Origin: an uncultured Acidobacteriaceae bacterium
GTDB lineage: Bacteria > Acidobacteriota > Terriglobia > Terriglobales > Acidobacteriaceae
NCBI GenBank assembly: GCA_963739125.1
Contig: CAVTZD010000001.1
Coordinates: forward strand, 4,657,107-4,721,106
Reading direction: 5' to 3'
Length of the DNA stretch: 64,000 nt
A program made the translations under genes and the position numbers. Under the pieces are notes generated by a model. It was not told the origin of the DNA. It made no database searches and saw nothing but the letters and a program-made list of their open reading frames with translations. Positions 22,582 through 63,237 of the stretch are shown piece by piece (the first letter of the stretch is position 1; each line of letters starts with the position of its first letter).

Positions 22582-23982
22582 CTAGGCACGCGTTTCCGTT
22601 TTCGTTCGCCGCTTCGAGGCTTCCTGCGCCATGACGTATATCCACCAGAGCAGGGGGATGACCATCAGATTCAGTTTCTCCCAGCGCAGCCAGAGAAAGA
22701 TCCAGAGCGGGCTGATGAATAGCGGAGCAACCGGGAGCAGAAGTGACCGCAGTTCCCGTGGGTTCGGGTGCGAGTCATGCCATTGCAGCGCGCAATCGTC
22801 GGCGAAGAGCGCCAGCGGCAGGACGAGAAGGCAGAGATCGTGCGCGTTGGTGTTGTAGGCGACCAGAAGCGAGGTGATCACGGCACAGGCGAAGCTGAGA
22901 CGGAAAACTCGCGCGTCGTCATTCTTGTTCGCGAGATTGGCGCTAGGGGGACTCGCCGGGCGATTTCCTGTTCGCGTCACGGCGACCAGGAGCGCTACGG
23001 AAGCTAGCAGCGCGAGCAGACGGGCTACCTGGAGAGGTCCCAGGTCTCGCAAAAACGGCGAGACCTGGGGCACCCTGAGGCGTGGCACCCACGACCGTGG
23101 CACCCACGGATGGGGCACCCACAGACGGCTCAGGTGCTGGAGAGCGGGCCAGCCGGTTGCTAAGCCTATCAGGTTTGGCATCAGGCCGAGTGGGGTTTGG
23201 CCGTGGCCGGGAATCGACACTACGCGCCAGGCGTAGGCGGGATACTGTCGCGCTCCTTGCCAGATCGCACCCGGCCAGCCGACCAGAGCGAGCGAAAGCA
23301 GCGTGACTGCGGTAGCGGTTGCGGCAAATCCGGCGGCGAGTTTCCGGCCTCGCCAGATCACGAGGATCAGAACCAGCGGCAGGGCAAAATGAAATTTAAA
23401 CAGAGCCAGCCCTAACCAACCGCCGGCGACAAGATCGGAACCGCGATCGAGAGCGCGAAAGGCGACAACGAAGACGAGGAGCAGCAAAATCGCGTCCTGC
23501 CCCTGCAGGAAATTGACGAAGACGGGAAAGAAGGCCAGCAGGGCCAGAACCCACTCCCAGAGCGGGATGTGGCGCAGGGAGATCAACCTCCCGCGCAGCA
23601 GGGCCGCGATGGCAACCAGTATGCCGAGGTTCAGAAGATTCCAGACCATAAACGCCTGGCCATACGGCAGCAGAGTCAGGGGCACGAAAATCAGGGCTTC
23701 GAACGGCGGATGAATGTAGGGCAAGGGTCCGCGGCGAATATCGGAGTTGGTAGTGAATTCGCGTTGGACGGATTCCTGGACGGCGGCGCTGTAGAGGGAA
23801 GATCCGCGGCCCTGGCGCAGGATTTTCGCCGCCGTGTAGTAGACGGTGAAGTCGGGATCTCCTTTGTCGATGCGGCCACGGACGCTCCAGAGGAAAAACA
23901 GATGCGTGCCGGCCATGGCCAGCAGGGATAGACGAAAGATCGTTCTGTAGAAGGTTTGCGAGGACCCTGGACGCCAGCTCAT
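22582..23982 (-). CDS. Polytopic membrane protein, DUF2029 / glycosyltransferase family 87-like
   Basis: 466 aa. The DPDFTVYYTAAKIL...LYS...LPYIHPPFEALIFVPLTLLPY pattern is typical of DUF2029. It contains an in-frame copy of repeat family E at 23043-23122. Confidence 0.75.
   Translation of the reverse strand: MSWRPGSSQTFYRTIFRLSLLAMAGTHLFFLWSVRGRIDKGDPDFTVYYTAAKILRQGRGSSLYSAAVQESVQREFTTNSDIRRGPLPYIHPPFEALIFVPLTLLPYGQAFMVWNLLNLGILVAIAALLRGRLISLRHIPLWEWVLALLAFFPVFVNFLQGQDAILLLLVFVVAFRALDRGSDLVAGGWLGLALFKFHFALPLVLILVIWRGRKLAAGFAATATAVTLLSLALVGWPGAIWQGARQYPAYAWRVVSIPGHGQTPLGLMPNLIGLATGWPALQHLSRLWVPHPWVPRSWVPRLRVPQVSPFLRDLGPLQVARLLALLASVALLVAVTRTGNRPASPPSANLANKNDDARVFRLSFACAVITSLLVAYNTNAHDLCLLVLPLALFADDCALQWHDSHPNPRELRSLLLPVAPLFISPLWIFLWLRWEKLNLMVIPLLWWIYVMAQEASKRRTKTETRA
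23043..23122 (+). repeat. REP-like element, family E, located inside a CDS
   Basis: The hairpin GGTCTCGCAAAAACGGCGAGACC is followed by GGGGCACCC, GTGGCACCCAC x2 and TGGGGCACCCAC. The minus-strand gene reads it as WVPHPWVPRSWVPRLRVPQVSPFLRD. Confidence 0.75.
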
Positions 23983-24503: not shown

Positions 24504-24665
24504 ATGGAGCTTGTGAGCAGACTTTGGCATGAACAAGCGGGACAAGACATCGCCGAATATGCGGTGATGCTGGCGGTGATCCTTGTTATTGTGGTTGGAA
24601 CCATTCAGTTGATCGGGTCCAGCGCAAACACGGTGTTCTCGTCAGTGTCCAGCACCCTTCAGTAG
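24504..24665 (+). CDS. flp: Flp-family type IVb pilin
   Basis: 53 aa from ATG 24504: MELVSRLWHEQAGQDIAEYAVMLAVILVIVVG... It carries the Flp processing motif G-x4-EY followed by a hydrophobic helix. It sits immediately upstream of cpaB. Confidence 0.9.
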   Translation: MELVSRLWHEQAGQDIAEYAVMLAVILVIVVGTIQLIGSSANTVFSSVSSTLQ

Positions 24666-24751
24666 CCGCCAAACCCAATGCGCAAGCAGCAACGTCCTCT
24701 GGTATTTTGGCAGGGGAGAAGTAGCAGCAGTTTCTGTTTCCAAGGAACAGC

Positions 24752-25615
24752 ATGAACCGCACCCGTTTGTTGATGATCGGAGTTCTGGCGCTGGCTCTGG
24801 GCCTGTTTGCCAGCATGTACGTTTATCGCAACCTGCAGGGCAAGAACAGCGGCAGCATGGAGAGCGGTGTGCAAGTCATTGTTGCCGCCGACGATCTGCA
24901 GGTCGGCGCCCGGGTGGAAGAGCATGACATCAAGGTGATCACGATTCCAGCGGCCGATCTGCCGGCGGGCGCGCCCAGAAAGCGCTCGGAAGTGGTGGGG
25001 CATGGCGTGATCATTCCGATTTCGAAGGGCGAATTCATTCTGTCGAACAAGCTGGCGGGAGAAAATGCAGGAGCCGGGCTGCCGTCGTTGATTCCTCCGG
25101 GAATGCGGGCGGTTTCGGTGCGAGTGAATGAAGTGGTTTCGGTGGCCGGGTTCGTGACTCCGGGAACGCGAGTCGACGTGCTGCTGACCGGCACGCCGGG
25201 CGCGGGCAGCGAACAGGAAACTACGACCGTGCTGCAGAACGTTGCGGTGCTGGCTGCCGGGCATACGCTCGAGCGCACGGCGACGGGCGAAGCGCAGAAT
25301 ACTCCGGTCATCACGCTGCTGGTTTCGCCGGACGACGCGCAGCGGCTGACGCTGGCCAGTTCCGAAGGACATATTCAGCTGGCGCTGCGCAATCCGCTGG
25401 ATACGCTGGCCCAGGAGGTTCCGTCGTCAGGAGCGAGATCGTTATACAAGGGCATGCCCGCGGCGGCGCCGGTGGTGAGGACCGCGGTGCGGCGCGCTCC
25501 GGCGCCGGAAAAGGCTGCTCCAGCACCGACTCCCGCGGGAGTGAGCATTGAAGTCTACCAGGGCGACAAGAAGCAGGAAGTAAAGTGCACGGAGGAGAAT
25601 TGCGGCACGAACTGA
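24752..25615 (+). CDS. cpaB: Flp pilus assembly protein CpaB/RcpC
   Basis: 287 aa. An N-terminal TM anchor is followed by a SAF-like domain (VIVAADDLQVGARV) and RcpC-like repeats. Its position between flp and the secretin supports the call. Confidence 0.9.
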   Translation: MNRTRLLMIGVLALALGLFASMYVYRNLQGKNSGSMESGVQVIVAADDLQVGARVEEHDIKVITIPAADLPAGAPRKRSEVVGHGVIIPISKGEFILSNKLAGENAGAGLPSLIPPGMRAVSVRVNEVVSVAGFVTPGTRVDVLLTGTPGAGSEQETTTVLQNVAVLAAGHTLERTATGEAQNTPVITLLVSPDDAQRLTLASSEGHIQLALRNPLDTLAQEVPSSGARSLYKGMPAAAPVVRTAVRRAPAPEKAAPAPTPAGVSIEVYQGDKKQEVKCTEENCGTN

Positions 25616-25670
25616 GCGGGCGCGAAGCAGAGGGCCTTACCCATTTCCACACTGGGAGAAGAATCGGAAA

Positions 25671-27116
25671 ATGAAAGTTTGCAAGCTGTCGCTTGGGGCT
25701 TTAGTGCTGGTCCTCGCCGCCCTTCCAGCGTTTGCCGTCATGCGGCAACAGGCCGACGCGGCGCCGCAGTCGCAGAGCCCAGAACCGACCGGTACCCAGA
25801 CCACGACTCTGTCTCCGCAGTCGCAGCAGTCCCAAGGATCGGCGCCGCTGCGGGTGATGGTGGATAAGTCGCTGCTAATCAACACGACCGAACGGCTGCG
25901 GCGCATTTCAATTACCGATGGGTCCATCGCTACGGCGCAGGTGATTACGCCGACGCAAATTCTGGTTCACGGCAAATCTCCGGGAGAAGTTTCGTTGCTG
26001 ATCTGGGACGAACTGGAGCGCTCGCGGAGTTTTGATCTGCGGGTGGATGTCGACGTCAGCGCGTGCGCGGAGGAGGAACATCGCGTTTTCCCGGATGAGC
26101 AGATCACGGTGACTCCATCGCGCGCCGCCATTGTGCTTTCCGGGCATGTCACGACCGAGGACGTAGCCAAGCGCGCCGGAGATCTAGCCAGCGCGTACTC
26201 GCCGAAGGTAGTGAACGTTCTTACCTTTGGTCCGGTCGGCTCGCAGGAAGTGCTGCTGCAGGTGAAGTTCGCCGAAGTGGATCGCACCGCGCTCACTCAG
26301 ATGGGCGTGAACTTCGTCTCGACTGGCGCCACCAACACGGTTGGAACATTGGGCACGGGTCAGTATGGCGGCTTCGGCCCGCAAACGCTGACACCGCCGG
26401 GATCGTCGAGCAGTTCATCCGGGGGCAGTACGACGACGACCACCACCACCGCCACGACCGTCGGCGCGCAGACCATCAGCAACGTGCTGAACCTTTTTCT
26501 TTTCCGTCCTGACATCAACTTCGGAGCGGTGATCGAGGCGCTTCAGACCAAGAACCTGCTGCAGATTCTGGCCGAGCCGAACCTGATTGCGGTGAACGGA
26601 AAAGAAGCCAGCTTTCTGGCTGGCGGGCAGTTCCCTTTTCCCATCGTGCAGCCGGGCGCGGGATTCACGGCAGTGACGATTTCGTTCAAGGATTTCGGCG
26701 TGAGGCTGCAGTTCACTCCGGTGATCATGCCCAACGGAAATATTCACCTGAAGGTTGCCCCGGAAGTGAGCACGCTGGATTTTTCGAATGCGTTGACCAT
26801 TTCGGGGTTCACGGTTCCGGCGCTGAGCACGCGCAAGGCGGAGACCGAATTTGAATTGCAGGATGGCCAGAGTTTCGTGATCGCGGGCCTGATGGATAAC
26901 CGCGTGACCGATATCTATAACAAGATTCCCGGGCTGGGCGATATCCCGATCCTGGGAAATTTCTTCAAAAGCAAGAGCGTGCAGAAGAGTAATACTGAGC
27001 TGATGGTGCTGTGCACGGTCCGGCGCATTTCCCCCAACGCGGAGCCGCCGACTCTGCCCAAGAATCCGCAGCCGTTCCTGAATCCGGGACAGTTTGACAA
27101 GGAACGCAAAAAGTAA
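25671..27116 (+). CDS. cpaC: Tad secretin CpaC/RcpA
   Basis: 481 aa. It has a signal peptide and a BON-like N-domain. The C-terminal secretin core reads ILAEPNLIAVNGKEASFLAGGQFPFP...IPGLGDIPILGNLFKS-like. It contains a Ser/Thr-rich insert. Confidence 0.93.
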   Translation: MKVCKLSLGALVLVLAALPAFAVMRQQADAAPQSQSPEPTGTQTTTLSPQSQQSQGSAPLRVMVDKSLLINTTERLRRISITDGSIATAQVITPTQILVHGKSPGEVSLLIWDELERSRSFDLRVDVDVSACAEEEHRVFPDEQITVTPSRAAIVLSGHVTTEDVAKRAGDLASAYSPKVVNVLTFGPVGSQEVLLQVKFAEVDRTALTQMGVNFVSTGATNTVGTLGTGQYGGFGPQTLTPPGSSSSSSGGSTTTTTTTATTVGAQTISNVLNLFLFRPDINFGAVIEALQTKNLLQILAEPNLIAVNGKEASFLAGGQFPFPIVQPGAGFTAVTISFKDFGVRLQFTPVIMPNGNIHLKVAPEVSTLDFSNALTISGFTVPALSTRKAETEFELQDGQSFVIAGLMDNRVTDIYNKIPGLGDIPILGNFFKSKSVQKSNTELMVLCTVRRISPNAEPPTLPKNPQPFLNPGQFDKERKK

Positions 27117-27159
27117 GCGGTCCGCGGGATGGTCCCAGATTGCGCGGAGCCAAAAGCTT

Positions 27160-27228
27160 TCACCGCGAAGAGCGCAAGAGATTGGCAAGAACCACGAAAA
27201 GAAACAGAATCACAGAGGTTCGCGGTGA
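27160..27228. repeat. Palindromic element (family G) in the cpaC-cpaE spacer
   Basis: The 10-bp inverted repeat TCACCGCGAA ... TTCGCGGTGA flanks an A-rich loop (AAGAACCACGAAAAGAAACAGAATCACAGAGG). Confidence 0.6.
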
Positions 27229-27249
27229 GGGGCAGACCGCGCGATTGGT

Positions 27250-28422
27250 ATGGCCGAGCTTTCCGTCGTGATCATCGCCGCCGATAACGAACAGCGCGCG
27301 CTGTTGCAGGTGCTGGTGGATGGCACCAACCTGGCGCGCACGGCGCATTCCAGCGCCAGTTTTCCGGTATCGGCGTCCGATCCGGTGACGCGGCGCGTGC
27401 GCAGCGCGAATCCCGACGTGACTCTGGTCGACATACCCGCGGACAATCCCTCGACGGCGTTGCGTGCCATCGAATTGCTGCATCAGGAAGTGCCGGAGTG
27501 CGCGGTATTCGCCGTGGGCAGCCTGAGCCAGCCCCAGGTCATCGTAAATGCGATGCGAGCCGGAGCCGGGGAATTCATCGAGCGGCCCACGAACACGACC
27601 GATTTGATTGATGCGTTCGTGCGGCTTTCGGCGGAACAGCGCCGCGGGCGGCAGGAGGGTCCGCGGGGCAAGGTTTTTACGGTGATCAACGCCAAGGGCG
27701 GAAACGGCGCGACCACGGTGGCGGTGAATCTGGCTGTCGCCCTGCAGTCGACGCATGGGCAGACGGCGCTGGTCGATATGGCGCCGCTCGGTCATGCGGC
27801 GCTGCACATGAATCTCAAGCCGGTGTTCAACGTGGCCGATGCCACGCGCAATCTGCACCGCATGGACGCTTCCCTGCTGGAGAGCTTCATGACGCGCCAC
27901 ACGGGAGGGCTGCAACTGCTGGCGGGAAGCGGCGTGCCGGCGGCGATCGACTCGACGACGGCGGATTTCGTTCGCCTGTTCGACATGCTGGTGACGCATT
28001 ACCGTTATGTGGTGGTGGATTCGTCGTCGCGCTTCGACGCGGCCAGCCGATTGATTGCAAACCTTTCGGAAACCGTGTTGCTGGTGGCCTGCACCGATGT
28101 GGCATCGCTGTGGAGCGCCGCGCGGGTGCAACAGTATCTCGGTGAAACCGGGAGCCGGGAACGAGTGCGGCTGGTGCTGAATCGGTTCCGCAAAGTTCCG
28201 GGCTTCAGCGAAGCGGACGCGGAAGCAGCGGTGGGAGCGAAGTTGTTGTGGCGCGTGCCGAACCAGTATTTCGCGATCTCGACCGCGATTGATCGCGGCA
28301 CGCCAGTGATGGATCAGCGCAACAGTGAAATGGCGCGCTGCTTTGCTGGACTGGCGGCGGAGTTGACGCGCAACGATGTCGACGTAAAGCGCGCGGCGTG
28401 GTCGATGTTTAAGTCGGTATAG
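27250..28422 (+). CDS. cpaE: CpaE/TadZ pilus-assembly ATPase-like protein (receiver-like N-domain + MinD/ParA-type domain)
   Basis: 390 aa. It has a deviant Walker A (NAKGGNGATT). Its position between the secretin and cpaF supports the call. Confidence 0.88.
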   Translation: MAELSVVIIAADNEQRALLQVLVDGTNLARTAHSSASFPVSASDPVTRRVRSANPDVTLVDIPADNPSTALRAIELLHQEVPECAVFAVGSLSQPQVIVNAMRAGAGEFIERPTNTTDLIDAFVRLSAEQRRGRQEGPRGKVFTVINAKGGNGATTVAVNLAVALQSTHGQTALVDMAPLGHAALHMNLKPVFNVADATRNLHRMDASLLESFMTRHTGGLQLLAGSGVPAAIDSTTADFVRLFDMLVTHYRYVVVDSSSRFDAASRLIANLSETVLLVACTDVASLWSAARVQQYLGETGSRERVRLVLNRFRKVPGFSEADAEAAVGAKLLWRVPNQYFAISTAIDRGTPVMDQRNSEMARCFAGLAAELTRNDVDVKRAAWSMFKSV

Positions 28423-28451
28423 TGGGACCGGGTTGGCCGGTTGGAGTTTGC

Positions 28452-28540
28452 GGGGAAAATCCCCACGTCTCGCAAAAGCCGCGAGACCCTTCGGCAAGCT
28501 CAGGGCAGGCTATGGGGCACCCTACGGATATGGGGCACCC
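28452..28540 (+). repeat. REP-like element, family E
   Basis: It has the GGGGAAAATCCCC hairpin, the GTCTCGCAAAAGCCGCGAGAC hairpin and two ATGGGGCACCC units. It lies in the cpaE-cpaF spacer. Confidence 0.75.
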
Positions 28541-28558
28541 GACAGCTAGAGAATTCTT

Positions 28559-29851
28559 ATGGCGAATTTGCAATCGTTTGAGAGGGCCGATTACCAGCAG
28601 GTAAAAGCTGACCTGCACCGGAAGATCCTGGACCGGCTCGATCTGGAGCGGCTGGGCAAAACCGGGGATTCGGCGCGCGACGAAGTTCTGATCGTGATTC
28701 GCAGCGCCGTCCAGAGCGAGGCGGTTCCTCTCAGCTTTGCCGAGCGCGAACGGCTGTCGCGCGAAATTCTGGACGAGATTTTTGGCCTGGGCCCGCTGGA
28801 ACCGCTGCTGAAAGATCCGACGGTTTCCGACATCCTGGTCAATCGCTTTGACCGCGTCTACATTGAGCGCGCCGGCAAGCTCGAGCTGACCAGCTTTTCT
28901 TTCAAAGACAATTCACACCTCATGCAGATCATCGAGCGGATCGTTTCGCGCGTGGGCCGGCGCGTGGACGAATCTTCGCCGATGGTCGATGCGCGCCTGA
29001 CCGACGGATCGCGCGTGAATGCCATCATACCTCCGCTGGCGATCGATGGGCCGTGCCTGTCGATCCGGCGTTTCGGGCGCGACCCGATTACCGCGCGCCA
29101 GATGATTGAGAATCACACGCTGACTGAGCCCATGCTGGAATTGCTCTCGGCGATGGTGAAGGGGCGATTGAACATTCTGGTCTCGGGCGGAACCGGCGCG
29201 GGCAAAACGACCCTGCTGAACGTGCTTTCCGGATACATTCCGAACTCGGACCGCATCGTGACCATCGAAGACGCGGCCGAACTGCAGCTCAAGCAGGAAC
29301 ACGTGGTGCGCCTCGAAACGCGTCCACCGAACATTGAAGGCAAGGGCGCGGTGCGGCAGCGGCAGCTGGTGATCAACAGCTTGCGTATGCGTCCCGACCG
29401 GATCGTGGTGGGCGAGGTGCGCGGTGAAGAAGCATTTGACATGTTGCAGGCCATGAACACCGGCCACGAAGGCTCGCTGACCACGGTGCACGCCAATACG
29501 CCGCGCGATGCGCTGGCCCGCGTGGAAAATATGGTCTCGATGGCCAACCTGAGCATTCCGGAGCGAGCGGTGCGGCACCAGATTACCTCGGCGATTCATG
29601 CCGTGATCCAGATTGCGCGCCTTTCCGACGGCACGCGCAAGGTGATGACCATTTCCGAAATCACCGGCATGGACGACAGGGACATCGCCATGCAGGACAT
29701 TTTTAATTTCGAACGCACGGGGATCGATGAGAACGGGAAGGTGCGCGGAGCATTCCGCGCGACCGGGACGCGCCCGAAATTCGCCGAGCGGCTGGCGACT
29801 TCGGGAGCGCGGCTGCGCCCGGCTCTGTTTGAGTCGAAGAGCGAGGTCTAA
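28559..29851 (+). CDS. cpaF: Tad secretion ATPase CpaF/TadA
   Basis: 430 aa. It has Walker [10 protein letters not shown], the Asp box and His box of secretion ATPases ([19 protein letters not shown]). Confidence 0.96.
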
Positions 29852-29857
29852 GGGTTT

Positions 29858-30829
29858 ATGTCGGCATTCCTGGTTGCGCTGCTGGTGTTGGTGCTGGTCG
29901 CGATGGCGGTTTTCGCCGTAGTGATGCTGTTCGACCAGCGCCGGGCGCAAGCCCGCCTCATCAAAGAGCGGCTGGCCGACGAACGCAAGGCTCCGGAACT
30001 TGGCACCGAGGAAGCGCCCGCTCTGGTGCGGGATGAGCAGCTCAGCAACATTCCGGCCCTGGACGCACTCCTGCGGCGGTCGGAGCGCGTTTCGGCCATC
30101 CAGAAGATGCTGCTGCAGGCCGGCCTGACGATGCGGGCGGGCAATTTTCTCGGGCTCTGCGCCGTGGCAGGAATTGTGGGCGCAGTGGCGGGCTACACCC
30201 TGGGCAAGAGGGTCGAGGTCGCATGGATCGCGCTGCTAGCCGGCTTCCTGGTGCCTTACGCCTATGCCTCTTACCGCCGCACCAAGCGCTTTGAGAAATT
30301 TGAGGAGCTTTTCCCCGAGGCCATCGACACGCTGGCGCGCGCGGTTCGCGCCGGACACGCTTTCACCACCGCGCTGGAACTGATTACCAGTGAAATCAGC
30401 GAACCGATTGCCGGCGAATTCCGCCAGCTTTTCGAAGAGCAGAAGTTCGGCATGCCGGTGCGCGACGCATTGATGAACCTGACCGACCGCATGCCGCTGG
30501 TGGACGTGAAGTTCTTCGTGACCGCCGTGATGCTGCAGCGTGAAACCGGCGGCAACCTGGCCGAGATTCTCGACAACCTGTCGTATGTGATCCGCGAACG
30601 GTTCAAGATCCAGCGCCAGGTGCGCGTCTACACCGCGCAGGGGCGGCTCACCATGGCGCTGCTGATGGGTATGCCGCCGATCATCGTCGTGGTCATGCTG
30701 GTGCTCAACCCGAGTTTTATTCAACCGCTGTTCCGGGACCCGATCGGCCACACGCTGCTGGTGGCTGGAATCACGCTGCAGACGGTGGGATATTTTGTGA
30801 TCCGCAAGATCATCCGGATTCAGGTCTAA
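29858..30829 (+). CDS. tadB: Tad platform protein TadB (type II secretion system F family)
   Basis: 323-aa membrane protein with a T2SSF-type cytoplasmic domain. It starts 6 nt after cpaF. Confidence 0.9.
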   Translation: MSAFLVALLVLVLVAMAVFAVVMLFDQRRAQARLIKERLADERKAPELGTEEAPALVRDEQLSNIPALDALLRRSERVSAIQKMLLQAGLTMRAGNFLGLCAVAGIVGAVAGYTLGKRVEVAWIALLAGFLVPYAYASYRRTKRFEKFEELFPEAIDTLARAVRAGHAFTTALELITSEISEPIAGEFRQLFEEQKFGMPVRDALMNLTDRMPLVDVKFFVTAVMLQRETGGNLAEILDNLSYVIRERFKIQRQVRVYTAQGRLTMALLMGMPPIIVVVMLVLNPSFIQPLFRDPIGHTLLVAGITLQTVGYFVIRKIIRIQV

Positions 30830-30861
30830 ATGAAGCAGGTTTAAAGAAGCAGGTTTAGGCA

Positions 30862-31764
30862 ATGCCGATCGTTCTGCCCATTATCGTTTTCGTGACCATC
30901 GCGCTGGTGGTGTTCGTGTTCGGCGCGGCCGTGGTCAGCCCGAGTTCGGTTCTGGGCGCCCGTCTGCGCGCCCTGGGCGGCATACAGCGGCCTACGGAAG
31001 CCAAGCCGGCGATGAAGGAGCGCGTGGAGCGCGCGCTCGATCCGCTGACCAGGGCGATTCCGCTTTCTCCCGCCGACGTTTCCCGAACCCGCGCCTGGCT
31101 CATTCAGGCGGGACTGCGCGACGCCCGCCATGTGAACTACTATTTCGGCGCGCGCCTGCTGCTGGCTGCCGCAGGGTTTGTCGGCGTGGCGGTTTTCTCG
31201 GGCTTCAACAACACGCTGCTGTTGGCCGGCATTCCGGGTCTGGGCTTCTTTCTGCCGCGCTTTTTCCTGAAGAGGATGATCCGAGATCGGCAGCAGCGGA
31301 TTCGCCTGGGTTTGCCCGATGCTTTGGACCTGACCGTGATCTGCGTGGAAGCCGGGCTTGCCCTCGATCAGGCCTTGATGCGCGTAGGCCAGGATCTGCA
31401 TCATGCCCATCCCGATCTGAGCAATGAATTCCATCTGGTGAACCTCGAGATGCGGGCCGGCAAACCCCGCGCCGAAGCGCTGCGCAACCTGGTCGACCGA
31501 ACCGGGGTTGACGACATCCGTTCCCTGGTTGGTACACTCATTCAGACAGATCGCTTCGGCACCAGCGTCACCCAAGCTCTGCGCGTGTATTCCGACTCCC
31601 TCCGCACGGAACGCCGGCAGCGGGCCGAAGAGCAGGCGGCGAAGACTACCATTAAGATGATCCCCCCACTGGTGATATTTGTTCTGCCCTCGATCATGTT
31701 CGTCACCATCGGACCGGCTGTCATTTCGCTGATTCGGCAACTGGGACCGGTTTCGGGCCACTGA
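30862..31764 (+). CDS. tadC: Tad platform protein TadC (type II secretion system F family)
   Basis: 300-aa membrane paralog of tadB, immediately downstream of it. Confidence 0.9.
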   Translation: MPIVLPIIVFVTIALVVFVFGAAVVSPSSVLGARLRALGGIQRPTEAKPAMKERVERALDPLTRAIPLSPADVSRTRAWLIQAGLRDARHVNYYFGARLLLAAAGFVGVAVFSGFNNTLLLAGIPGLGFFLPRFFLKRMIRDRQQRIRLGLPDALDLTVICVEAGLALDQALMRVGQDLHHAHPDLSNEFHLVNLEMRAGKPRAEALRNLVDRTGVDDIRSLVGTLIQTDRFGTSVTQALRVYSDSLRTERRQRAEEQAAKTTIKMIPPLVIFVLPSIMFVTIGPAVISLIRQLGPVSGH

Positions 31765-31809: not shown

Positions 31810-32289
31810 ATGGCTGTTTTTTCATCGGAGCGCCAGGCCTTCAATCGCACCCGCCAGAGGCAACTCGCCTCCGCGCTGGCCGTGGCCGACACGCACTGGA
31901 GCCGGCTGCGCGGACTGTTAGGCCTGCGTTCGAGTGACTTCCGTAATGGATACGGTCTCTGGATTGTTCCCTGCCACGGCGTTCATACTTTAGGAATGGG
32001 ATTTCCCATCGACGTCGTCTACCTTGACCAGGCGATGACGGTGATTCGCGTAGAGGCTGAGCTGCGGCCCTGGCGTGTGGCGCCGGTGACTTTGCAGGCG
32101 GCGTCTGTGCTGGAACTTCCCTGCCGCACAGCGGTCGAAACCGGAACCGCGGTGGGCGATAGAATTGAGATCACCGCGGGAGCGGAAATCCGGGATGCAG
32201 AGATCCCAGATGCAGAGATCCAAGCAGAGACCCTGGATGCAAAGATCCTAGATGCGGGCCGCAGTGGGTTTTCCGCGCGAAGGCAGTAA
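31810..32289 (+). CDS. DUF192 (COG1430) domain protein with C-terminal pentapeptide-repeat tail
   Basis: 159 aa. The core (RLRGLLG...GLWIVPCHGVHTLGMGFPIDVVYLD...VLELP) matches DUF192. The tail reads AEIRD AEIPD AEIQ AETLD AKILD. It starts 45 nt after tadC. Confidence 0.8.
   Translation: MAVFSSERQAFNRTRQRQLASALAVADTHWSRLRGLLGLRSSDFRNGYGLWIVPCHGVHTLGMGFPIDVVYLDQAMTVIRVEAELRPWRVAPVTLQAASVLELPCRTAVETGTAVGDRIEITAGAEIRDAEIPDAEIQAETLDAKILDAGRSGFSARRQ
32182..32253 (+). repeat. Imperfect 15-bp tandem repeat (5 units) encoding the DUF192 tail
   Basis: The units are GCGGAAATCCGGGAT, GCAGAGATCCCAGAT, GCAGAGATCCAA, GCAGAGACCCTGGAT and GCAAAGATCCTAGAT. Confidence 0.8.
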
Positions 32290-32311
32290 GGGGAGGCTGT
32301 AAACAGAGACC

Positions 32312-34834
32312 GTGGCAGCAACCGTCCAACTCGAAGAGACAGTGCAACTGCACGGCGAGCCGAAGCTGCTGGTCGAGTGGCCGTCGCCGTGGCAGGAGTT
32401 TGTCACGTCGTTGCGCCCCGCGCTGGCGCGCTCGGAAGCGCGGCTCGCCGGGGAAGCTCCGTTTGGGCTGGTTCCGTTTCGCATCATGATCCCCTCCTAT
32501 GTGGTGGAGGCGTTTGTGATCTTTGCCGCGATTATTGTTCCGGTAAAGCTGGCGCAATTGCGGCCCTATGCGGTGCCACGTCTGTCGAGCCGCGACGTGA
32601 TTTATTACAGTGGCGACGAACTGCCCCGCACCGAAGACCTTAGCGGCGCCGAGGCGGGAAGCACCGGCAGCGCCGGCGGCGACGAAGCCCACCATCGCAC
32701 GCAGACCATCAAGGTTGCGCGCGGGGGATCGCTGGCGCCGAAAATTGTGGATGCGCCCAACTTGCGACTTCCCGCGACGCGCGACGCGGTGGCGAACCTG
32801 CTGGCGATCAGCCCCAACGCGGGGCCACCGCCGGTCGAAGGCGTGCGCTCAGCGCGCAACGTGCCCAATCTTTCCGCAGTGGTGGCCCCGGCGCCCGACG
32901 TAGTGCGGGACTACACGCGCAACGGCATTGCGCTCAATGCCGTGGTACCGCCGACACCCAACTTCTCGCGCGACCAACCGCTGGTTGCGCCGAGGCTGAA
33001 CGTCGATGTGATTCCGCCCGCGCCGAACGTCGCGCAACATGCCCTGGTGGCTCCGGCGCTGGCACCGAGCGTGATTCCTCCAGCGCCCAGCGTTTCACAG
33101 GAACACCGGCTGACCCTGCCGGCGCTCAATTCCAGCGTGATCGCGCCCGCGCCCAGCCTGACGCACGACCATGGCCGCCCTGTTCCCGCGCTCGCCGCCA
33201 GCGTGATTCCGCCCGCGCCGGGAGGAGTGAGCCGCCAAATTTCCAGTTCGCCGGTGCAGATGGCAAACGTTGCTGTCGTGCCGCCGCCGGCATCCGCGCC
33301 GGAGCGAGTGAGCCAACGCAATTCCAAGCTGACTTTGCCGACGCCGTCGGTCATTGCGCCGCCGCCCTCGACCGACGTTTCGCAGGATATGCGCCGCCTG
33401 GCCAGCGGCAGCGTTCCCGATCCTTCGAAGACGGTGGTGCCTCCGCCGCCGACGCAATCGGGCAGCGGATCGTTTATGAGCAGTTTGATCGGCAAGATTT
33501 TCGGCAGCACGGAGGTTGTGCCGCCTCCGCCCGCGGTGAATGCCAAGAGTGACCGTGGCAGCGGGGCTGAGCTGGCGACTAACGTTGTGCCGCCTCCGCC
33601 TTCGGTAGCGAGCGGCTCTGCCGGAGGCACTCCGCGCGGAGCGCGAAATGGAGCCAGCACATCTCTGGGGACCAACGTCATCGCTCCACCGCCTTCGGCT
33701 GGGATATCGACGATCAACGGCGCGCACACGCTGGCCTCCGCCGCCGCGCCTGGGCTGGGAGCGCCGAGTGTAGTGCCGCCTCCGCCCGCGCTGGCAGGCC
33801 GGGGCGGCGGTACGGGAAAGACCGGTGGGGGCGCGGGAACTCCCAGGGGCACGCTGCTGGCCAACAATGTGGTGCCACCTCCACCGTCGCTGGGCGGAGG
33901 GTCGAATGCCGCCGGATCAGGCCTTGGGCGCAACGGCGCTGGCCTGGCACGGGCGATGGATGCCAACTCAGCCGCTCCGGCTGCGACCACTGGCGGCAGC
34001 GGCAACAATGCCGGCGCGGTCATCTCGAGCCAGCCCGGCGCCAAGGTTGGGCTGCCGTCCGTGGGCGGCACTGGATCGCTTGCGCTGTCGCCGGCCGGCG
34101 GGGAGAAACCCGGCCTTGGTGGGGCCGGTGGAGGAACCAGCATTGGCCGCGGCACGGACTCGGGTAGCGGAATCAAGGGCGCAGGGCCCGGCGCTGGCAT
34201 CAGCAACTCAGGCCGCGGGTCTGACGCGGACACGCACGGAGGAATCTCGCCCGTCCCCGGCCCGGGAGGCGCGGGGAATGCTCCTTCAGTGAATCCGCCG
34301 GTGCGGGGAGTGGACATCAGCGGCGGCAGCACGATTGTTACCCTGCCGAGTTTCGGGTCGGATGCGTCGAATGATCCCGGTGCGACGCCTGGGCACTCCA
34401 TGAGCAAGGAACGGCAGACACTGGGAGTGACCGTGGTTGCCACCGCAACCTCCGGCGGCGCTTTTGAGCCGTACCGGAACCTGCTGCACGGGCAGACCTA
34501 TACTACCTATCTCGATACTTCGCTGGGAACGGTGGTGATGGAGTTTGCCGGCGAGGGCGCGCCCGGCAATCGACCGGGAGGGCTCTCGGCTCCGCAGGGC
34601 ATCCGCACGGACCTACCGGCCGGGCTGCCGCACACCCGCGTGGTGCTGACCTGCACGCTCGATGCTGCGGGCGACCTGAAGAACGTGCGCGTGCGCGAAG
34701 GTCCCATCGATATGACTACGAGAGTGCTGGCCGCCCTGCGGGGATGGAAATTTCAGCCCGCCATGCGCGGCGACCAGCCGGTTGAGGTCACGGCCATCCT
34801 CGGCTTCAACATCAACACCAACGACCGCTTCTAG
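32312..34834 (+). CDS. Giant TonB_C-domain protein: cytoplasmic N-terminus, one TM helix, 14 V-[VI]-[PA]-P-x-P repeats, Gly-rich region, C-terminal TonB-type domain
   Basis: 840-aa ORF from GTG 32312, 22 nt after the DUF192 gene. The TM helix is MIPSYVVEAFVIFAAIIVPV. The repeats span about 32876-33887. The C-terminus (LTCTLDAAGDLKNVRVREGP...ALRGWKFQPAMRGDQPVEVTAILGFNI) is TonB_C-like. Confidence 0.85.
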   Translation: MAATVQLEETVQLHGEPKLLVEWPSPWQEFVTSLRPALARSEARLAGEAPFGLVPFRIMIPSYVVEAFVIFAAIIVPVKLAQLRPYAVPRLSSRDVIYYSGDELPRTEDLSGAEAGSTGSAGGDEAHHRTQTIKVARGGSLAPKIVDAPNLRLPATRDAVANLLAISPNAGPPPVEGVRSARNVPNLSAVVAPAPDVVRDYTRNGIALNAVVPPTPNFSRDQPLVAPRLNVDVIPPAPNVAQHALVAPALAPSVIPPAPSVSQEHRLTLPALNSSVIAPAPSLTHDHGRPVPALAASVIPPAPGGVSRQISSSPVQMANVAVVPPPASAPERVSQRNSKLTLPTPSVIAPPPSTDVSQDMRRLASGSVPDPSKTVVPPPPTQSGSGSFMSSLIGKIFGSTEVVPPPPAVNAKSDRGSGAELATNVVPPPPSVASGSAGGTPRGARNGASTSLGTNVIAPPPSAGISTINGAHTLASAAAPGLGAPSVVPPPPALAGRGGGTGKTGGGAGTPRGTLLANNVVPPPPSLGGGSNAAGSGLGRNGAGLARAMDANSAAPAATTGGSGNNAGAVISSQPGAKVGLPSVGGTGSLALSPAGGEKPGLGGAGGGTSIGRGTDSGSGIKGAGPGAGISNSGRGSDADTHGGISPVPGPGGAGNAPSVNPPVRGVDISGGSTIVTLPSFGSDASNDPGATPGHSMSKERQTLGVTVVATATSGGAFEPYRNLLHGQTYTTYLDTSLGTVVMEFAGEGAPGNRPGGLSAPQGIRTDLPAGLPHTRVVLTCTLDAAGDLKNVRVREGPIDMTTRVLAALRGWKFQPAMRGDQPVEVTAILGFNINTNDRF

Positions 34835-34876
34835 CCACCGAGGCTCGATATAAGTGCGCCATTACCCGCGCTCTCT

Positions 34877-34903
34877 GCGAGGAGCGGGGACGCCGCTCCT
34901 CGC
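34877..34903 (+). terminator. Strong hairpin after the giant TonB_C gene (no U-tract)
   Basis: The 11-bp stem is GCGAGGAGCGG-ggacg-CCGCTCCTCGC. It lies 43 nt after the stop at 34834. No T-run follows, so terminator function is uncertain. Confidence 0.3.
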
Positions 34904-35030
34904 GGCTGGTTACCGATGGACGTGGAACGTCGTCGGATTCATGCCGACGCGCCCCTCCGCCGATGAATGCTTTGACGGGAACAGCGCGTATCAGGAACCT
35001 ATATCCAGCACGTTCCGGAGGAGCCGAGCA

Positions 35031-35384
35031 ATGAATTTCGATGAAGCGATCGCAGCCCATGGTAACTGGAAACAGAAGCTGGCAGACTATCTTCGCAAAC
35101 CCGATGGCAGCCTGAAGGCTAGCGAGATCTCTGCGGACAATAAATGCACGTTAGGGCAATGGATTCATGGGGAGGGAGCGAAGTACTCCAAGTTATCGGA
35201 GTACAGCGCGCTGAAAACCGATCACGCCCGTTTCCACAAGTCCGCCGCAGAAGTGGTCAGGAAGGCGGACGCCGGGCAGTCCGTCGCGGAAGAGACCGCG
35301 CTGGGGTCGAAGAGTGAATTCGGAACCGCGTCGAGCGCGGTGGTGATGGGCATCATGCACATGAAGAAACACGCGGCCCAGTAG
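35031..35384 (+). CDS. Stand-alone chemoreceptor zinc-binding (CZB) domain protein, copy 1
   Basis: 117 aa from ATG 35031 with GGAGGAG upstream. The CZB pattern is present: AIAAHGNWK...C-T-LGQWI...DHARFH (His, Cys, H-x3-H). Confidence 0.85.
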   Translation: MNFDEAIAAHGNWKQKLADYLRKPDGSLKASEISADNKCTLGQWIHGEGAKYSKLSEYSALKTDHARFHKSAAEVVRKADAGQSVAEETALGSKSEFGTASSAVVMGIMHMKKHAAQ

Positions 35385-35599
35385 CTCAGCTGGCAAAGGC
35401 AAAAGGGCGGAGCAGAAGACGACGACCTAAGGGGAGCGTGTTGAGGTGTTTGCTCTTCGCCTTCGGCTGGGAGGGCGGGCTTATATCAGCATCAGCACCA
35501 ACGTCCGTTCCCGGGCGACTGCTCCTACGTGTGGCTTATGCCCGCTGCGCCGATGTCAGACAAGACACGGGAGAGTCCGTCCCGACGGGGGGCACGGCT

Positions 35600-35980
35600 A
35601 TGGATTTTGACGAGGCCATTGCAATCCACAGCAAGTGGAAGCGCAAACTGCGCCAGTATCTGGCGAAGCATGACGGCAGCCTGGATCCTGCCGAGGTCGG
35701 TCACGACGACCGGTGCACTCTTGGCAAATGGATTTACAGCGAAGGTGCGGCCTACTCAGCCATGCCCGAGTATGTCAAGCTGCGATTTGAACACGCACGG
35801 TTTCACGCCATTGCCGCAGAACTCGTGAGAAAGGCAAACGCCGGACAAGCCATGAGTTCTCACCTTGACCCGTGCGCCGGCAGCGAATTCTCAAAGGCTT
35901 CCTCGGCCATTGTGAGGGCCCTGACGGAGATGAAGAAGCGCGTGTCGGAATCCCGTGCGCGCTCGCGTGCACACGCGTAA
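35600..35980 (+). CDS. Stand-alone chemoreceptor zinc-binding (CZB) domain protein, copy 2
   Basis: 126 aa from ATG 35600. It is a paralog of copy 1, roughly half identical by eye. It has AIAIHSKWK...C-T-LGKWI...EHARFH and a basic C-terminal tail. Confidence 0.85.
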   Translation: MDFDEAIAIHSKWKRKLRQYLAKHDGSLDPAEVGHDDRCTLGKWIYSEGAAYSAMPEYVKLRFEHARFHAIAAELVRKANAGQAMSSHLDPCAGSEFSKASSAIVRALTEMKKRVSESRARSRAHA

Positions 35981-41824: not shown

Positions 41825-43468
41825 TTAATCTCCGGTGCGCGGCCCGGCAACGGCGAATACATTTACCTGCAGGCCGTTGGAGACCAGCCGTTCGGTCTCG
41901 ACCGTACTGGCCTTCCCTGCCGCCGGCAGCATGCCCACGGCGAGGTTTCTGCCGGATTGCTTGGCTCGATTCAGGCCGCGATCAGCCAGAGTGAGGACTT
42001 CCTCATAGCTCACCGCACGTGGATCTTCGGGGAACCAGGGAAAGGCGGCCCATCCCACCGAGCAGGTGCGGTAGATCGATTCCCCGGACCCGTTCAGAGT
42101 AAAAGGCGTATCGGCGACCGCTGAGAGGACGCGGTGGGCCAGCAATTCGGCCTCGCCACGATCGGTATAGCGCGAGACGATGAGGAACTCCTCTCCGCCC
42201 CAGCGAACAAGAACATCGGAGTGGCGAATGGAAGAACTGAGACGCCGCGCCATCTCCACCAGGACTTTGTCGCCTACGTCATGGCCGTAGCGATCGTTGA
42301 CTTCCTTGAAATTGTCGGCATCGATTAAATAGAAAACCAGGTCGCGGATATGCTGGTCATGCCGGTCAGCGTGTGCGCGCAACGCCTGGCTGACGTCGGC
42401 CTCGATGGTGGCGGTGAAATAGCGGCGATTGCGCAATCCGGTAAGGGGATCGGTGAGCGAAGCCTCGTGCAGCACGAGGTTGTTGTCGCGCAACTGGCGG
42501 TTCAATCGGCGATGCTGGATGAACAGCAGAAGGGCCATCAGAAACATGGTGGCCAAAGTAACCAGAACCCGGAAGTGCGAAGCCGGCATGGGCAAGCTGT
42601 GATCGACCAGAGAATAGATTGCGATGACGGGCAGAGAGAGCACCGCCATCATGGCCAGGTTCGCCATCCAGGAATCGTAATCTTCCTCGCCCTCGGCTTC
42701 CGGAGTCGGTGAAAGGCCCTGTCCCATCAACGCCGCCGCGGCGAACAGCACGAACGAGGCCGTGTAGGGCAGGTCATACCAGCTGCCGGTGAAATAAGTA
42801 TTTTTCTCGATGGCGTGATTCAGGGCGTAAAACGCGATGCCGTTGAAAACTACGGCGGCGCAGAAAACCGCGTAAACGGCTTTCCAGCGTCCCTTGCTCT
42901 TGCGCCAGAAAACGGCAAGGATAACGGCGAACAGAATGTTCTCCGCCCCGGAAAGCAGGTCGAAATTCTTGTTGTAGGCGCTGTCGCTGGTCCAAACATA
43001 TTGCCAGCACACGACGAACGAGACGTAGAGGTAAAGCCACCACAACAGCAAGAGCATGAAGTCGAGCATCCCGAGACTCGCGCCGCGCTCGGTGGGCTTG
43101 CGATGAGGCCGGAGCAGCACTCCTGCAATCATCGGGGCCCCGGCCAGAAACAAAAGGGCGTCGGCGGCAGACATGGTCGGCATCGGCCTTTTCAGGATCA
43201 GGTCGAAGACGATCCATATGATCTGGTCGCTGAGCCAAAGCACCCAGCCGGCCGCCTGCAACAACCAGAACCAGCGCATGCGTCCCTTGGTGGCAAAGCC
43301 CTGTGCGGCAAAAGCGCACAGGGCGATCAGCATCGAGAGGGCGCAGATGATGTCACTGGTCGCGGTCAGGGCAAATCCGCGGGGAAGAATCGCACAAGCC
43401 ATCGCCAGCAGCGCTATGGGAAGAAATGCGCTGGCAATCGACAGTTTCGGACCTTTCCAGCGGTTCAA
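41825..43468 (-). CDS. Membrane-anchored diguanylate cyclase (multi-TM sensor + GGDEF domain, GGEEF active site, RxxD I-site)
   Basis: The C-terminal GGDEF domain reads LTGLRNRRYF...DADNFKEVNDRYGHDVGD...RHSDVLVRWGGEEF. The start is uncertain. I propose TTG 43468, preceded by GAGGA. The longest ORF reaches 43729 but would overlap the upstream HD-GYP gene by about 180 nt. Confidence 0.85.
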   Translation of the reverse strand: MNRWKGPKLSIASAFLPIALLAMACAILPRGFALTATSDIICALSMLIALCAFAAQGFATKGRMRWFWLLQAAGWVLWLSDQIIWIVFDLILKRPMPTMSAADALLFLAGAPMIAGVLLRPHRKPTERGASLGMLDFMLLLLWWLYLYVSFVVCWQYVWTSDSAYNKNFDLLSGAENILFAVILAVFWRKSKGRWKAVYAVFCAAVVFNGIAFYALNHAIEKNTYFTGSWYDLPYTASFVLFAAAALMGQGLSPTPEAEGEEDYDSWMANLAMMAVLSLPVIAIYSLVDHSLPMPASHFRVLVTLATMFLMALLLFIQHRRLNRQLRDNNLVLHEASLTDPLTGLRNRRYFTATIEADVSQALRAHADRHDQHIRDLVFYLIDADNFKEVNDRYGHDVGDKVLVEMARRLSSSIRHSDVLVRWGGEEFLIVSRYTDRGEAELLAHRVLSAVADTPFTLNGSGESIYRTCSVGWAAFPWFPEDPRAVSYEEVLTLADRGLNRAKQSGRNLAVGMLPAAGKASTVETERLVSNGLQVNVFAVAGPRTGD

Positions 43469-43550
43469 ACTCTCATCCTCGGTGATATTTAGAACGCCCA
43501 GACTTGCTGATTGGGGACCCGGGGCCTTTAACCTGGCTGCCCTGCTCGGC

Positions 43551-58601: not shown

Positions 58602-58823
58602 AAATTATTTCCTGAACACGCCGGTTTAGACGTGGCGGGTTGATGCATACATTTTAGATGCCGCAGTCTTTATGGATGATTGTCCCACAGGCCGGGAGAA
58701 TTCCGCAGAAAGAATCACACCGAAAAAACCACCCGGAACCGGAAGATTCAACATCCGCGGAGGATGTGCTCGCGGCTTGCAGTCAGGCGTTCCAGCCCCG
58801 CGCACACCACTCCGTATCCCCGG

Positions 58824-58861
58824 ACAAAAGAGTGCGGGGGGACGCCGACCTCGGCGTCCCC
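58824..58861 (-). terminator. Probable intrinsic terminator after pal
   Basis: On the minus strand it begins 10 nt after the pal stop. The stem GGGGACGCCGA / TCGGCGTCCCC is 11 bp. It is followed by CCGCACTCTTTTGT. Confidence 0.5.
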
Positions 58862-58870
58862 TCGCGCGTT

Positions 58871-59590: not shown

Positions 59591-59660
59591 AGTTTGCTTC
59601 ACGTTCTTCCTCCCTGCGACCCTAAAGTGTTGCACTTCAAGGTCAGACGAAGCGTATTTA

Positions 59661-61043: not shown

Positions 61044-61212
61044 CCGTGTGGGGGAAAAACACACTGCGTACAACAATATCGTATCCCGATATGAATGAGT
61101 TTGCAACACTTTGTCCTTCGCGTCGGTTACTCGTTGGTTACACAAAAGTGATTGCACCTCTGCACGCGCCGAATGTGACTTGCGGACCGCCGGTCATGAA
61201 CCACGGGTTACG

Positions 61213-63141: not shown

Positions 63142-63237
63142 TGTTTTTTGGAAAATACCTGCCCAGATTATAGATGACCCCGGCGCCCGAATCGGCTGCA
63201 CGTACCCGATCCGGCAACGAAAATTTGCGGCTTGCTT

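Follow-up and report, generated by a model that had tools for sequence, protein, structure and literature searches.

A TonB/TolA-like protein with a conserved disordered linker is encoded at the end of the Tad pilus operon of Terriglobales Acidobacteria

The Tad operon and its terminal gene

The DNA analysed here, referred to as the window, is a stretch of 64,000 nucleotides from an uncultured Acidobacteriaceae bacterium (Terriglobales; contig CAVTZD010000001.1 of GenBank assembly GCA_963739125.1, positions 4,657,107 to 4,721,106). It contains a series of genes for a Tad (Flp, type IVc) pilus at 24504-31764 on the forward strand, and the last gene of this same-strand series encodes an 840-amino-acid TonB/TolA-like protein that we call X. 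From its gene order, domain structure and conservation we conclude that X is probably an envelope-spanning protein of the TonB/TolA family that is dedicated to the Tad pilus machine of Terriglobales Acidobacteria. The operon is composed as follows.

24504-24665, forward: flp, with the Flp-type prepilin sequence G/QDIAEYAV visible in the translation
24752-25615, forward: cpaB/rcpC (Pfam RcpC)
25671-27116, forward: cpaC, secretin (Pfam Secretin)
27250-28422, forward: cpaE/tadZ
28559-29851, forward: cpaF/tadA (Pfam T2SSE)
29858-30829, forward: tadB (Pfam T2SSF)
30862-31764, forward: tadC (Pfam T2SSF)
31810-32289, forward: DUF192 gene (Pfam DUF192, E = 1e-14), directly upstream of X
32312-34834, forward: gene X (open reading frame and translation, 840 amino acids)

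Gene X starts with a GTG codon at 32312 that is preceded by a Shine-Dalgarno-like run (GGGGAGG). Since an in-frame TAA stands at 32300, this GTG is the earliest possible start, and the N-terminus of X aligns with those of its homologues. The only Pfam or NCBIfam match of the protein is TonB_C, with none to known Tad components such as TadD, TadE/F/G, RcpB, CpaD or CpaI; public records label its homologues 'hypothetical', 'energy transducer TonB' or 'TonB family protein'. An antisense reading frame of 510 amino acids (32911-34443, reverse strand) lies within gene X; it is Gly/Pro-rich and most simply represents a reverse reading of the GC-rich repeats.

More than 2000 homologous proteins were found. 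The best 120 are 66-73% identical to X at 98-100% query coverage, have lengths of 828-875 amino acids, and stem from many independent metagenome assemblies, most of which bear the label Candidatus Sulfotelmatobacter or Terriglobales. When 1.84 billion cluster representatives were searched exhaustively with HMMER, 441 clusters matched, including full-length relatives of 500-700 amino acids that retain both ends of X and few of its repeated motifs.

To sample the genetic neighborhood of X, one genome per species was scanned; of the 180 loci found to encode a relative, 80 were fetched and combined with two earlier ones to give 82. In 81 of these, tadC and then DUF192 lie directly upstream of X on the same strand, and the single exception has no upstream DNA. 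The same arrangement is present in eight of eight distant relatives (32-48% identity, 592-704 amino acids), which brings the combined count to 89 of 89 loci with readable upstream DNA over an identity range of 32-73%. The gene order flp-cpaB-cpaC-cpaE-cpaF-tadB-tadC is the same in those related loci that extend far enough, while the genes downstream of X vary. Genes were called in ten loci; in nine of them the stop codon of DUF192 overlaps the start codon of X by 4 base pairs, and the tenth (L002) has a short gap. An earlier interpretation of this DNA, made from the sequence alone (hereafter the sequence-only reading), had considered that homologues might occur at random genomic locations; they are strictly linked to pilus genes. 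X is thus co-inherited with the Tad operon and is probably co-translated with it, and the DUF192-X pair behaves, by its gene order, as a conserved terminal module of the Tad operon in Terriglobales. This synteny suggests that X is an undescribed envelope-spanning part of the machine, and we consider it quite likely that X is a Tad component.

The DUF192 protein has no obvious signal peptide. DUF192 is also the final gene of the Tad locus on Streptomyces plasmids, and it follows a prepilin peptidase gene in Alkaliphilus; DUF192 genes outside the Terriglobales set lie at 7863-8222 of L088 and at 7899-8225 of L089. Judged by these positions, it looks like a Tad/type IV pilus accessory common to several phyla that has so far escaped recognition. 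A 1124-amino-acid LysM protein encoded beside DUF192 in Streptomyces was considered as a single-membrane analogue of X; we dropped this candidate because it is built differently, with more than one membrane helix and, on inspection by eye, a regulator-like C-terminal region.

Protein X carries the three domains of the TonB/TolA family

For the structure prediction, AlphaFold2 was run on X with an alignment of 132 sequences; per-column conservation was counted over the same number of aligned sequences. The features of the protein are listed below, with the predicted local distance difference test score (pLDDT) where it is informative.

32312-32476, forward: conserved cytoplasmic N-terminal segment (amino acids 1-55; LLVEW.S.W.EF..SIRPAL.RS...LAGEAP), helix predicted at amino acids 26-38
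32477-32560, forward: single membrane helix (amino acids 56-83; AlphaFold pLDDT ~90), carrying R57-x4-S62-x3-E66
32561-32875, forward: membrane-adjacent conserved region (amino acids 84-188), predicted disordered, pLDDT <50 in both models
32576-32626, forward: motor-box (D-box)-like strand PRLSSRDVIYYSGDELP (amino acids 89-105), prolines at both sides
32879-33886, forward: array of 14 V[VI][PA]Px[PA] motifs (amino acids 190-525), spacing 21-33 amino acids
33887-34411, forward: sequence-conserved Gly/Ser/Ala-rich region (amino acids 526-700), no fold predicted
34412-34831, forward: folded C-terminal domain (amino acids 701-840), a ~65-amino-acid extension plus the TonB_C fold, pLDDT ~90 or more

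The model of X shows a short cytoplasmic helix (amino acids 26-38, pLDDT ~75-79), the membrane helix, no confident structure for amino acids 90-700, and a confidently predicted domain at amino acids 701-837 (pLDDT ~90). A second AlphaFold run, with a 609-amino-acid relative (P0279), gave the same picture, including an equivalent membrane helix. X is accordingly laid out as one membrane helix, 14 proline motifs, a Gly-rich stretch and a C-terminal TonB_C domain, and is predicted to be a single-pass inner-membrane protein with a conserved cytoplasmic tail of 55 amino acids and a TonB_C fold at its far end. The sequence-only reading had described an 840-amino-acid TonB-like protein with a single membrane helix near residue 60. 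The reading frame, the TonB_C profile and the predicted fold bear this description out, as does the position of the only membrane helix in the model. It had overlooked three features, namely the TolA-like S-x3-polar motif in this helix, the motor-box-like strand that follows it, and the invariant coupling to DUF192.

The C-terminal domain identifies X most directly. Its match to the Pfam TonB_C profile (PF03544; amino acids 776-828) scores 26.2 bits, above the gathering cut-off of 24.6, which answers the profile comparison that had been proposed for this part of the protein; the NCBIfam model TIGR01352 scores just under its cut-off (23.7 vs. 27.1). Pfam TonB_C is matched by 25 of 30 diverse C-terminal domains of the X family, whose last beta-strand and C-terminal tail are nearly invariant. 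In a Foldseek comparison of the predicted domain with the PDB, seven of the eight best matches belong to TonB C-terminal domains and the remaining one to the TonB homologue FusB, with a probability of 1.0 for the top TonB matches. The best of these is 6i97_D (E = 1.9e-4, target-normalised TM-score 0.67, 88 aligned columns), and 1u07, 6fip, 8rd6, 2gsk and 1xx3 are further TonB matches; TolA (1tol) ranks far below them (E = 1.2). Searches of the PDB sequences with family profiles, that of the whole family included, found only TonB (E ~3e-4).

The cytoplasmic tail (near-invariant residues W23, W27, F30, P36, A37, S41, L45 and E48) has no counterpart in canonical TonB and TolA proteins. The membrane helix reads R57-IMIP-S62-YVV-E66. 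Its register, R-x4-S-x3-polar, is the same as that of Escherichia coli TolA (R13-AIII-S18-AVL-H22) and is shared by the window's own TolA-like protein (R16-x4-S21-x3-H25). Column 66 of the alignment holds Glu in 95, Gln in 23 and His in 13 of the 132 sequences. The His forms are short, deep-branching members whose Tad linkage is confirmed (e.g., R-STLA-S-ALM-H), and they display the canonical S-x3-H.

About fifteen residues past the helix, between P89 and P105, lies SSRDVIYYSGDEL, the most conserved stretch of the family. The motor-box-like strand of the X family can be written as SSRDVIYYSGDELP; I97 is kept in 121, Y98 in 130, and L104 and P105 in 131 of the 132 sequences. The stretch resembles SSIDAVMVDSG of TolA and, in pattern and position, the D-box QPISVTMVTPAD of TonB, which is captured by ExbD (PMC10907165). 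P89-RLSSRDVIYYSGDEL-P105 is one position off the published alternating hydrophobic/hydrophilic seven-residue D-box pattern, and the AlphaFold monomer shows no strand there. The SHLS motif (S-x3-H-x6-L-x3-S) of the membrane helix and the motor box, both of which bind the motor, are the features by which a 2025 survey recognises periplasmic force transducers (PMC12204202).

Taken together, the TonB_C profile, the predicted fold, the single N-terminal membrane helix and the Pro-rich middle support a TonB-like protein, and we hold it very probable that X belongs to the TonB/TolA family. All three TonB/TolA domains are present in the X family, with the caveats that the His of the membrane helix is replaced in most members and that the L and S positions of the SHLS motif are not kept.

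A conserved linker without a predicted fold

Between the membrane helix and the C-terminal domain, ~620 residues of X combine predicted disorder with good conservation. Amino acids 84-188 are the most conserved region of X, with a majority fraction of 0.88 among close relatives and 0.71 among distant ones. At 0.67, the conservation of the Gly-rich region comes close to that of the TonB_C part (0.70). Numerous Gly, Ser and Pro positions of this region are invariant or nearly so in alignments of 132 and 124 sequences, for example in SLAMSP.GG..GLGG.GGG.GIG.G.G.GSG, GPGGAG and PGV.ISGG...V.LPSFG. Residues 560-720 consist of 26% Gly, 14% Ser and 10% Ala, in agreement with the Gly/Ser/Ala-rich stretch that had been noticed in front of the C-terminal domain. 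The idea that a folded domain is hidden in the Gly-rich or the membrane-adjacent region was rejected, as both have pLDDT values <50 in the two deep-alignment AlphaFold runs on the long and the short form.

Polymer scaling gives a mean end-to-end distance of ~22 nm for an unfolded chain of 617 residues, about the assumed width of the periplasm, and of ~16 nm for the short form. Fully extended as a polyproline helix, the linker of X would measure ~190 nm, far exceeding a periplasm. These lengths suggest that the linker is a flexible tether bearing conserved docking motifs, and not a rigid rod. The sequence-only reading had taken it for a greatly extended, modular periplasmic spacer. Modularity was borne out (protein length and motif number correlate with r = 0.92 over 132 relatives); the notion of a mere spacer was not, given that amino acids 84-188 and the Gly-rich region are conserved as well as the folded domain, or better.

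The proline-motif array is a lineage-specific expansion

The regular expression V[VI][PA]Px[PA] finds exactly 14 motifs in X, in the spellings that had been listed before, and they start at amino acids 190, 211, 233, 254, 276, 298, 322, 347, 375, 402, 425, 456, 487 and 520; the start-to-start spacing rises steadily from 21 to 33 amino acids. About 0.08 copies are expected by chance (mean 0.07-0.09, maximum 2, in 20,000 composition-preserving shuffles). The early spacers share a repeated pattern, ..SVSQEH..L.LPAL.., likewise in keeping with the previous description. Residues 189-560 contain 17% Pro, including the 14 polyproline-type motifs, and are predicted to be disordered or extended.

At the DNA level, the copies of the motif repeats are merely 63-83% alike over 18-36 nucleotides, and Tandem Repeats Finder reported no array in the repeat DNA of X, both of which argue that the repeats are not an assembly artefact, a concern that had been raised. 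In addition, more than 100 orthologues have a constant length and constant motif positions. Comparison of repeat numbers among relatives, which had also been proposed, shows 14 or 15 copies at orthologous positions in close homologues and 0-15 copies family-wide; the sole copy-number change among close relatives is one additional unit in the forms of 866-875 amino acids. Judged by the divergence of their DNA copies, the repeats are old.

Short relatives of 533-620 amino acids have 0-3 motifs. Distant relatives lack all or part of motif blocks 1-6 and 10-14, and only these blocks come and go. The short relatives and the correlation between length and motif number show that the 14-motif array arose when the middle of the protein expanded in one lineage, and that it was later frozen. 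Across the sequences compared, 14 motifs are not a defining feature of the X family. Since relatives with 0-3 motifs hold the same operon position, the full array is not needed to cross the periplasm. The VVPPPP-type motifs may be repeated docking sites, and they do not seem to be essential to the core job of the family. We rejected one motif per subunit of a 13-14-meric secretin as a general rule; relatives at the same operon position have 0-15 motifs.

The composition of the operon differs between the forms. Some of the short-form loci (L083, L087, L091 and L092; S-x3-H, 0-3 motifs) contain tadV, two tadE genes and tadG within the operon, whereas long-form Sulfotelmatobacter-type operons, the window's included, are without tadV, tadE and tadG. 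The expansion of the linker thus coincides with a slimmer operon. By Pfam annotation, the window's operon also has no tadD, cpaD or rcpB-type gene.

Stator genes and further neighbors

The window contains a single complete Tol-Pal cluster (57726-63201, reverse strand), consisting of tolQ, tolR, a tolA-like gene, tolB, pal with a poly-Pro linker, and cpoB/ybgF. The members that concern us here, identified from their translated reading frames, are these.

62422-63201, reverse: tolQ
61994-62422, reverse: tolR
61213-62010, reverse: tolA-like gene (265 amino acids, R-x4-S-x3-H, Gly-rich linker)

These are the only stator genes in the window, which holds no second TolQ/TolR-like sequence. As the sequence-only reading had observed, no ExbB/ExbD pair adjoins X, and the nearest stator pair is tolQR (61994-63201), ~27 kilobases away. 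By pure inference, this pair can be named as a candidate energiser of X. There is also no gene for a TonB-dependent receptor adjacent to X.

Several other genes lie close to the operon. A tandem pair of genes for single-domain CZB (chemoreceptor zinc-binding) proteins (34854-35384 and 35438-35980) is located directly 3' of it and is present in only 26 of the 82 related loci. Genes for GT87-family glycosyltransferases (19974-21347 and 22582-23982, both on the reverse strand) flank the flp end, likewise in L001, L002 and L090, and in L092 they are found on the downstream side; they may serve pilin or envelope glycosylation. Genes for an FHA-GAF-SpoIIE protein (PP2C phosphatase; 18074-19756, reverse strand) and a GGDEF diguanylate cyclase (41825-43729, reverse strand) lie within 10-14 kilobases, with no conserved linkage seen; their products could be regulators.

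A possible role for X in the Tad machine, and alternatives

We propose that X would be the product of the operon's last cistron, in most cases translated in coupling with the small cytoplasmic DUF192 protein. Its linker would cross the periplasm and the cell wall, and its C-terminal domain would use beta-strand addition, like TonB and TolA, to attach to a partner close to the outer membrane. The likeliest partner would be a Tad component, for example the CpaC secretin or its surroundings; that the secretin itself is the target is a tentative suggestion that we rate as rather unlikely. The helix motif R-x4-S-x3-E/Q/H and the motor-box-like strand (DVIYYSG) might dock onto a proton-driven stator of the TolQR/ExbBD type encoded elsewhere, in which case the proton-motive force would govern secretin assembly, gating or alignment, or the dynamics of the pilus. 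Whether X is coupled to a motor is close to an even call, leaning slightly towards no.

The proposal can be carried further. In Terriglobales, Tad pili might include a step driven by the proton-motive force, in which a stator grips the helix and motor box and X pulls on the secretin or the alignment complex. By such a pull the gate might be opened or closed, the pilus might be tensioned or retracted, or load might be sensed. The multi-subunit Tad rings would provide the surface onto which the conserved linker, with its VVPPPP motifs (up to 15), and the Gly-rich segment fold, and DUF192, as a cross-phylum cytoplasmic Tad accessory, would control X from inside the cell. We regard this full scenario as speculative and, taken as a whole, unlikely.

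A number of observations weigh against an energised, Tad-dedicated X. No gene for ExbB, ExbD, TolQ or TolR is found within 10 kilobases of X in the 85 loci searched, and no Pfam match to MotA_ExbB or ExbD turned up in the 10 annotated loci; with stator genes missing near X in all loci searched, the motor is hypothetical. The X protein of the window has Glu, not His, at the key position of the helix, and the L and S of SHLS are not kept. A floppy linker of ~620 residues with a contour length of ~190 nm is a poor force transmitter, and TonB and TolA proteins whose domain II is swapped for a disordered sequence lose their native function (PMC12204202). The N-domain of Tad secretins is VirB9-like and not of the N0 or TonB-box-bearing type (PMC10499894), which also weakens the secretin N0 domain as a target of the TonB_C domain by analogy to PilQ and GspD. 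No TonB-box-like partner of X was identified among the sequences examined. The C-terminus of CpaB (25400-25615) has a Pro-rich linker followed by the conserved strand motif GVSIEVYQGDKK, with YVVEMIRG-type variants in short-form loci; we rejected GVSIEVYQGDKK as a TonB box for X because this tail corresponds to a known structure, the beta-hairpin by which RcpC of Pseudomonas aeruginosa attaches to the secretin N-domain (PMC12307814). Finally, the evidence is wholly comparative, and the organisms are all uncultured, their genomes having been assembled from metagenomes.

The flexible linker and the missing motor genes keep alive a different role for X within the Tad system, that of a passive tether or assembly factor that anchors or positions the secretin or the alignment complex relative to the inner membrane and the cell wall in the manner of ExeB/GspB. 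TonB_C and the linker motifs would then be static binding modules, and the polar residue of the helix would contact TadB, TadC or CpaB instead of a stator. This would fit the absence of motor genes in or near every locus searched, the replacement of His by Glu or Gln in most members, and a very long disordered linker that is ill-suited to pulling. It would also fit the membrane-adjacent conserved region, which at ~100 amino acids is much larger than a D-box and suggests a bigger interface such as the CpaB ring, and an operon that is without pilotin or anchor genes of the tadD, cpaD or rcpB type; ExeB provides a precedent (PMC4098917). Such a tether leaves it hard to explain, however, why S-x3-H and the motor-box-like strand should survive family-wide, deep branches included, in the absence of a stator-type partner, and there is no ExeA/GspA-like partner gene. 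Moreover, TonB paralogues commonly share a motor that is encoded elsewhere. Ton paralogy is known to be widespread (PMC12204202). Overall, we judge an unpowered tether to be a serious alternative of clearly lesser probability.

Two further explanations would deprive X of a role in the pilus. X could be an ordinary TonB paralogue for nutrient uptake that energises TonB-dependent transporters, its position behind the tad operon being meaningless. Its TonB_C domain, S-x3-polar helix, Pro-rich linker and public names are what such a protein would have, and TonB genes are often unlinked to exbBD. We nevertheless find this highly improbable. The tadC/DUF192 synteny persists in all readable loci, to identities as low as 32%; stop and start codons overlap, the downstream genes vary, and no TonB-dependent receptor gene adjoins X. 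In addition, the TonB_C match is weak, X is 2-3.5 times as long as a canonical TonB, and its conserved cytoplasmic domain and Gly-rich region are found in no TonB. Alternatively, the repeat region might be an artefact or degenerating low-complexity sequence, resulting from collapsed or expanded repeats or from a mis-called reading frame in GC-rich DNA. A GC content of 66-71% and the 510-amino-acid reading frame on the opposite strand could be cited in its favor. The chance of this is negligible, and we regard the idea as refuted already by the divergence of the repeats at the DNA level, by the recurrence of the same length and motif positions in more than 100 independent assemblies, and by residue-level conservation that spans the whole protein.

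Comparison with known systems

X shares with TonB of E. coli and P. aeruginosa (PF03544) an N-terminal helix with Ser-x3-polar, a proline-flanked stretch just after this helix that resembles the beta-prone motor box, a Pro-rich periplasmic domain II, and a TonB_C fold with a conserved edge strand. It differs from TonB in its length (840 vs. ~240 amino acids), in the conserved cytoplasmic tail of 55 amino acids, and in having mostly Glu or Gln for His. Domain II of X runs to ~620 amino acids and includes a conserved Gly-rich part besides 14 VVPPPP-type motifs set at intervals, whereas that of TonB is a compact (EP)n/(KP)n rod. X has ~65 additional amino acids in its C-terminal domain, and its gene stands within a pilus operon with no exbBD or receptor gene nearby. 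With TolA, X has in common the identical R-x4-S-x3-polar register, a similar strand behind the helix (SSIDAVMVDSG in TolA, SSRDVIYYSGD in X) and a long domain II; the C-terminal domain of TolA binds by strand addition, as we propose for X. X is encoded outside the tolQRAB-pal cluster, and the separate TolA-like protein of the window has no BLAST match to X at E <= 1.

There are precedents for TonB-like proteins in envelope machines. TonB3 of P. aeruginosa, a TonB paralogue that is part of the PocAB-TonB3 system, is needed for the type IVa pilus and not for transport, and it has been proposed to interact with the secretin (PMC5285504). In contrast to X, TonB3 works with its own ExbBD-like proteins PocAB, is encoded outside the pilus operon, serves type IVa pili and the flagellum instead of Tad, and lacks the repeats, the Gly-rich region and the DUF192 partner. 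ExeB/GspB is a single-pass inner-membrane protein, TonB-like and enriched in proline, whose periplasmic domain binds the type II secretin and is needed for its assembly (PMC4098917). It functions in type II secretion, X in the Tad context, and it pairs with ExeA, an ATPase and peptidoglycan-binding protein for which Pfam annotation finds no gene in the window or in the 10 annotated related loci; none of the profile or fold searches with X brought up ExeB. GltG and GltJ of the Myxococcus Agl-Glt gliding machine are inner-membrane proteins whose N-terminal domains lie in the cytoplasm and whose TonB-like C-terminal domains follow long, disordered segments in the periplasm; this machine is powered by a TolQR-like motor, and a disordered segment folds onto its partner in models (PMC11761067). 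They belong to another machine, have cytoplasmic FHA, ZnR and GYF domains, and their motor, AglRQS, is genetically defined. SjdR is another precedent for a TonB-like protein in a machine not devoted to import.

Our literature search turned up no description of a Tad-linked TonB-like protein. Recent papers on the Tad architecture describe no TonB-like component (among them PMC10499894 and PMC12307814), and the 2025 survey of force transducers makes no mention of Tad, pilus, secretin or Acidobacteria (PMC12204202). In current structural models of the Tad pilus, the periplasm is spanned only by the RcpC/CpaB ring and the secretin, with no link to a motor driven by the proton-motive force. What appears to be new, then, is that a Tad pilus operon has recruited a transducer of the TonB/TolA type, one that is partnered by DUF192 and whose disordered domain II is unusual and conserved; DUF192 itself is flagged as a likely, hitherto unrecognised Tad accessory. 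The natural series of X proteins, with 0-15 motifs and with His, Gln and then Glu in the helix, can be used to study the evolution of domain II and of the motor-binding helix. If our interpretation is correct, a TonB/TolA-type protein would be a new module in the toolkit of type IV filaments, in a large and ecologically dominant group of soil bacteria, and X would lengthen the short list of TonB-like proteins that operate outside nutrient import, next to TonB3, GltG/J, ExeB and SjdR.

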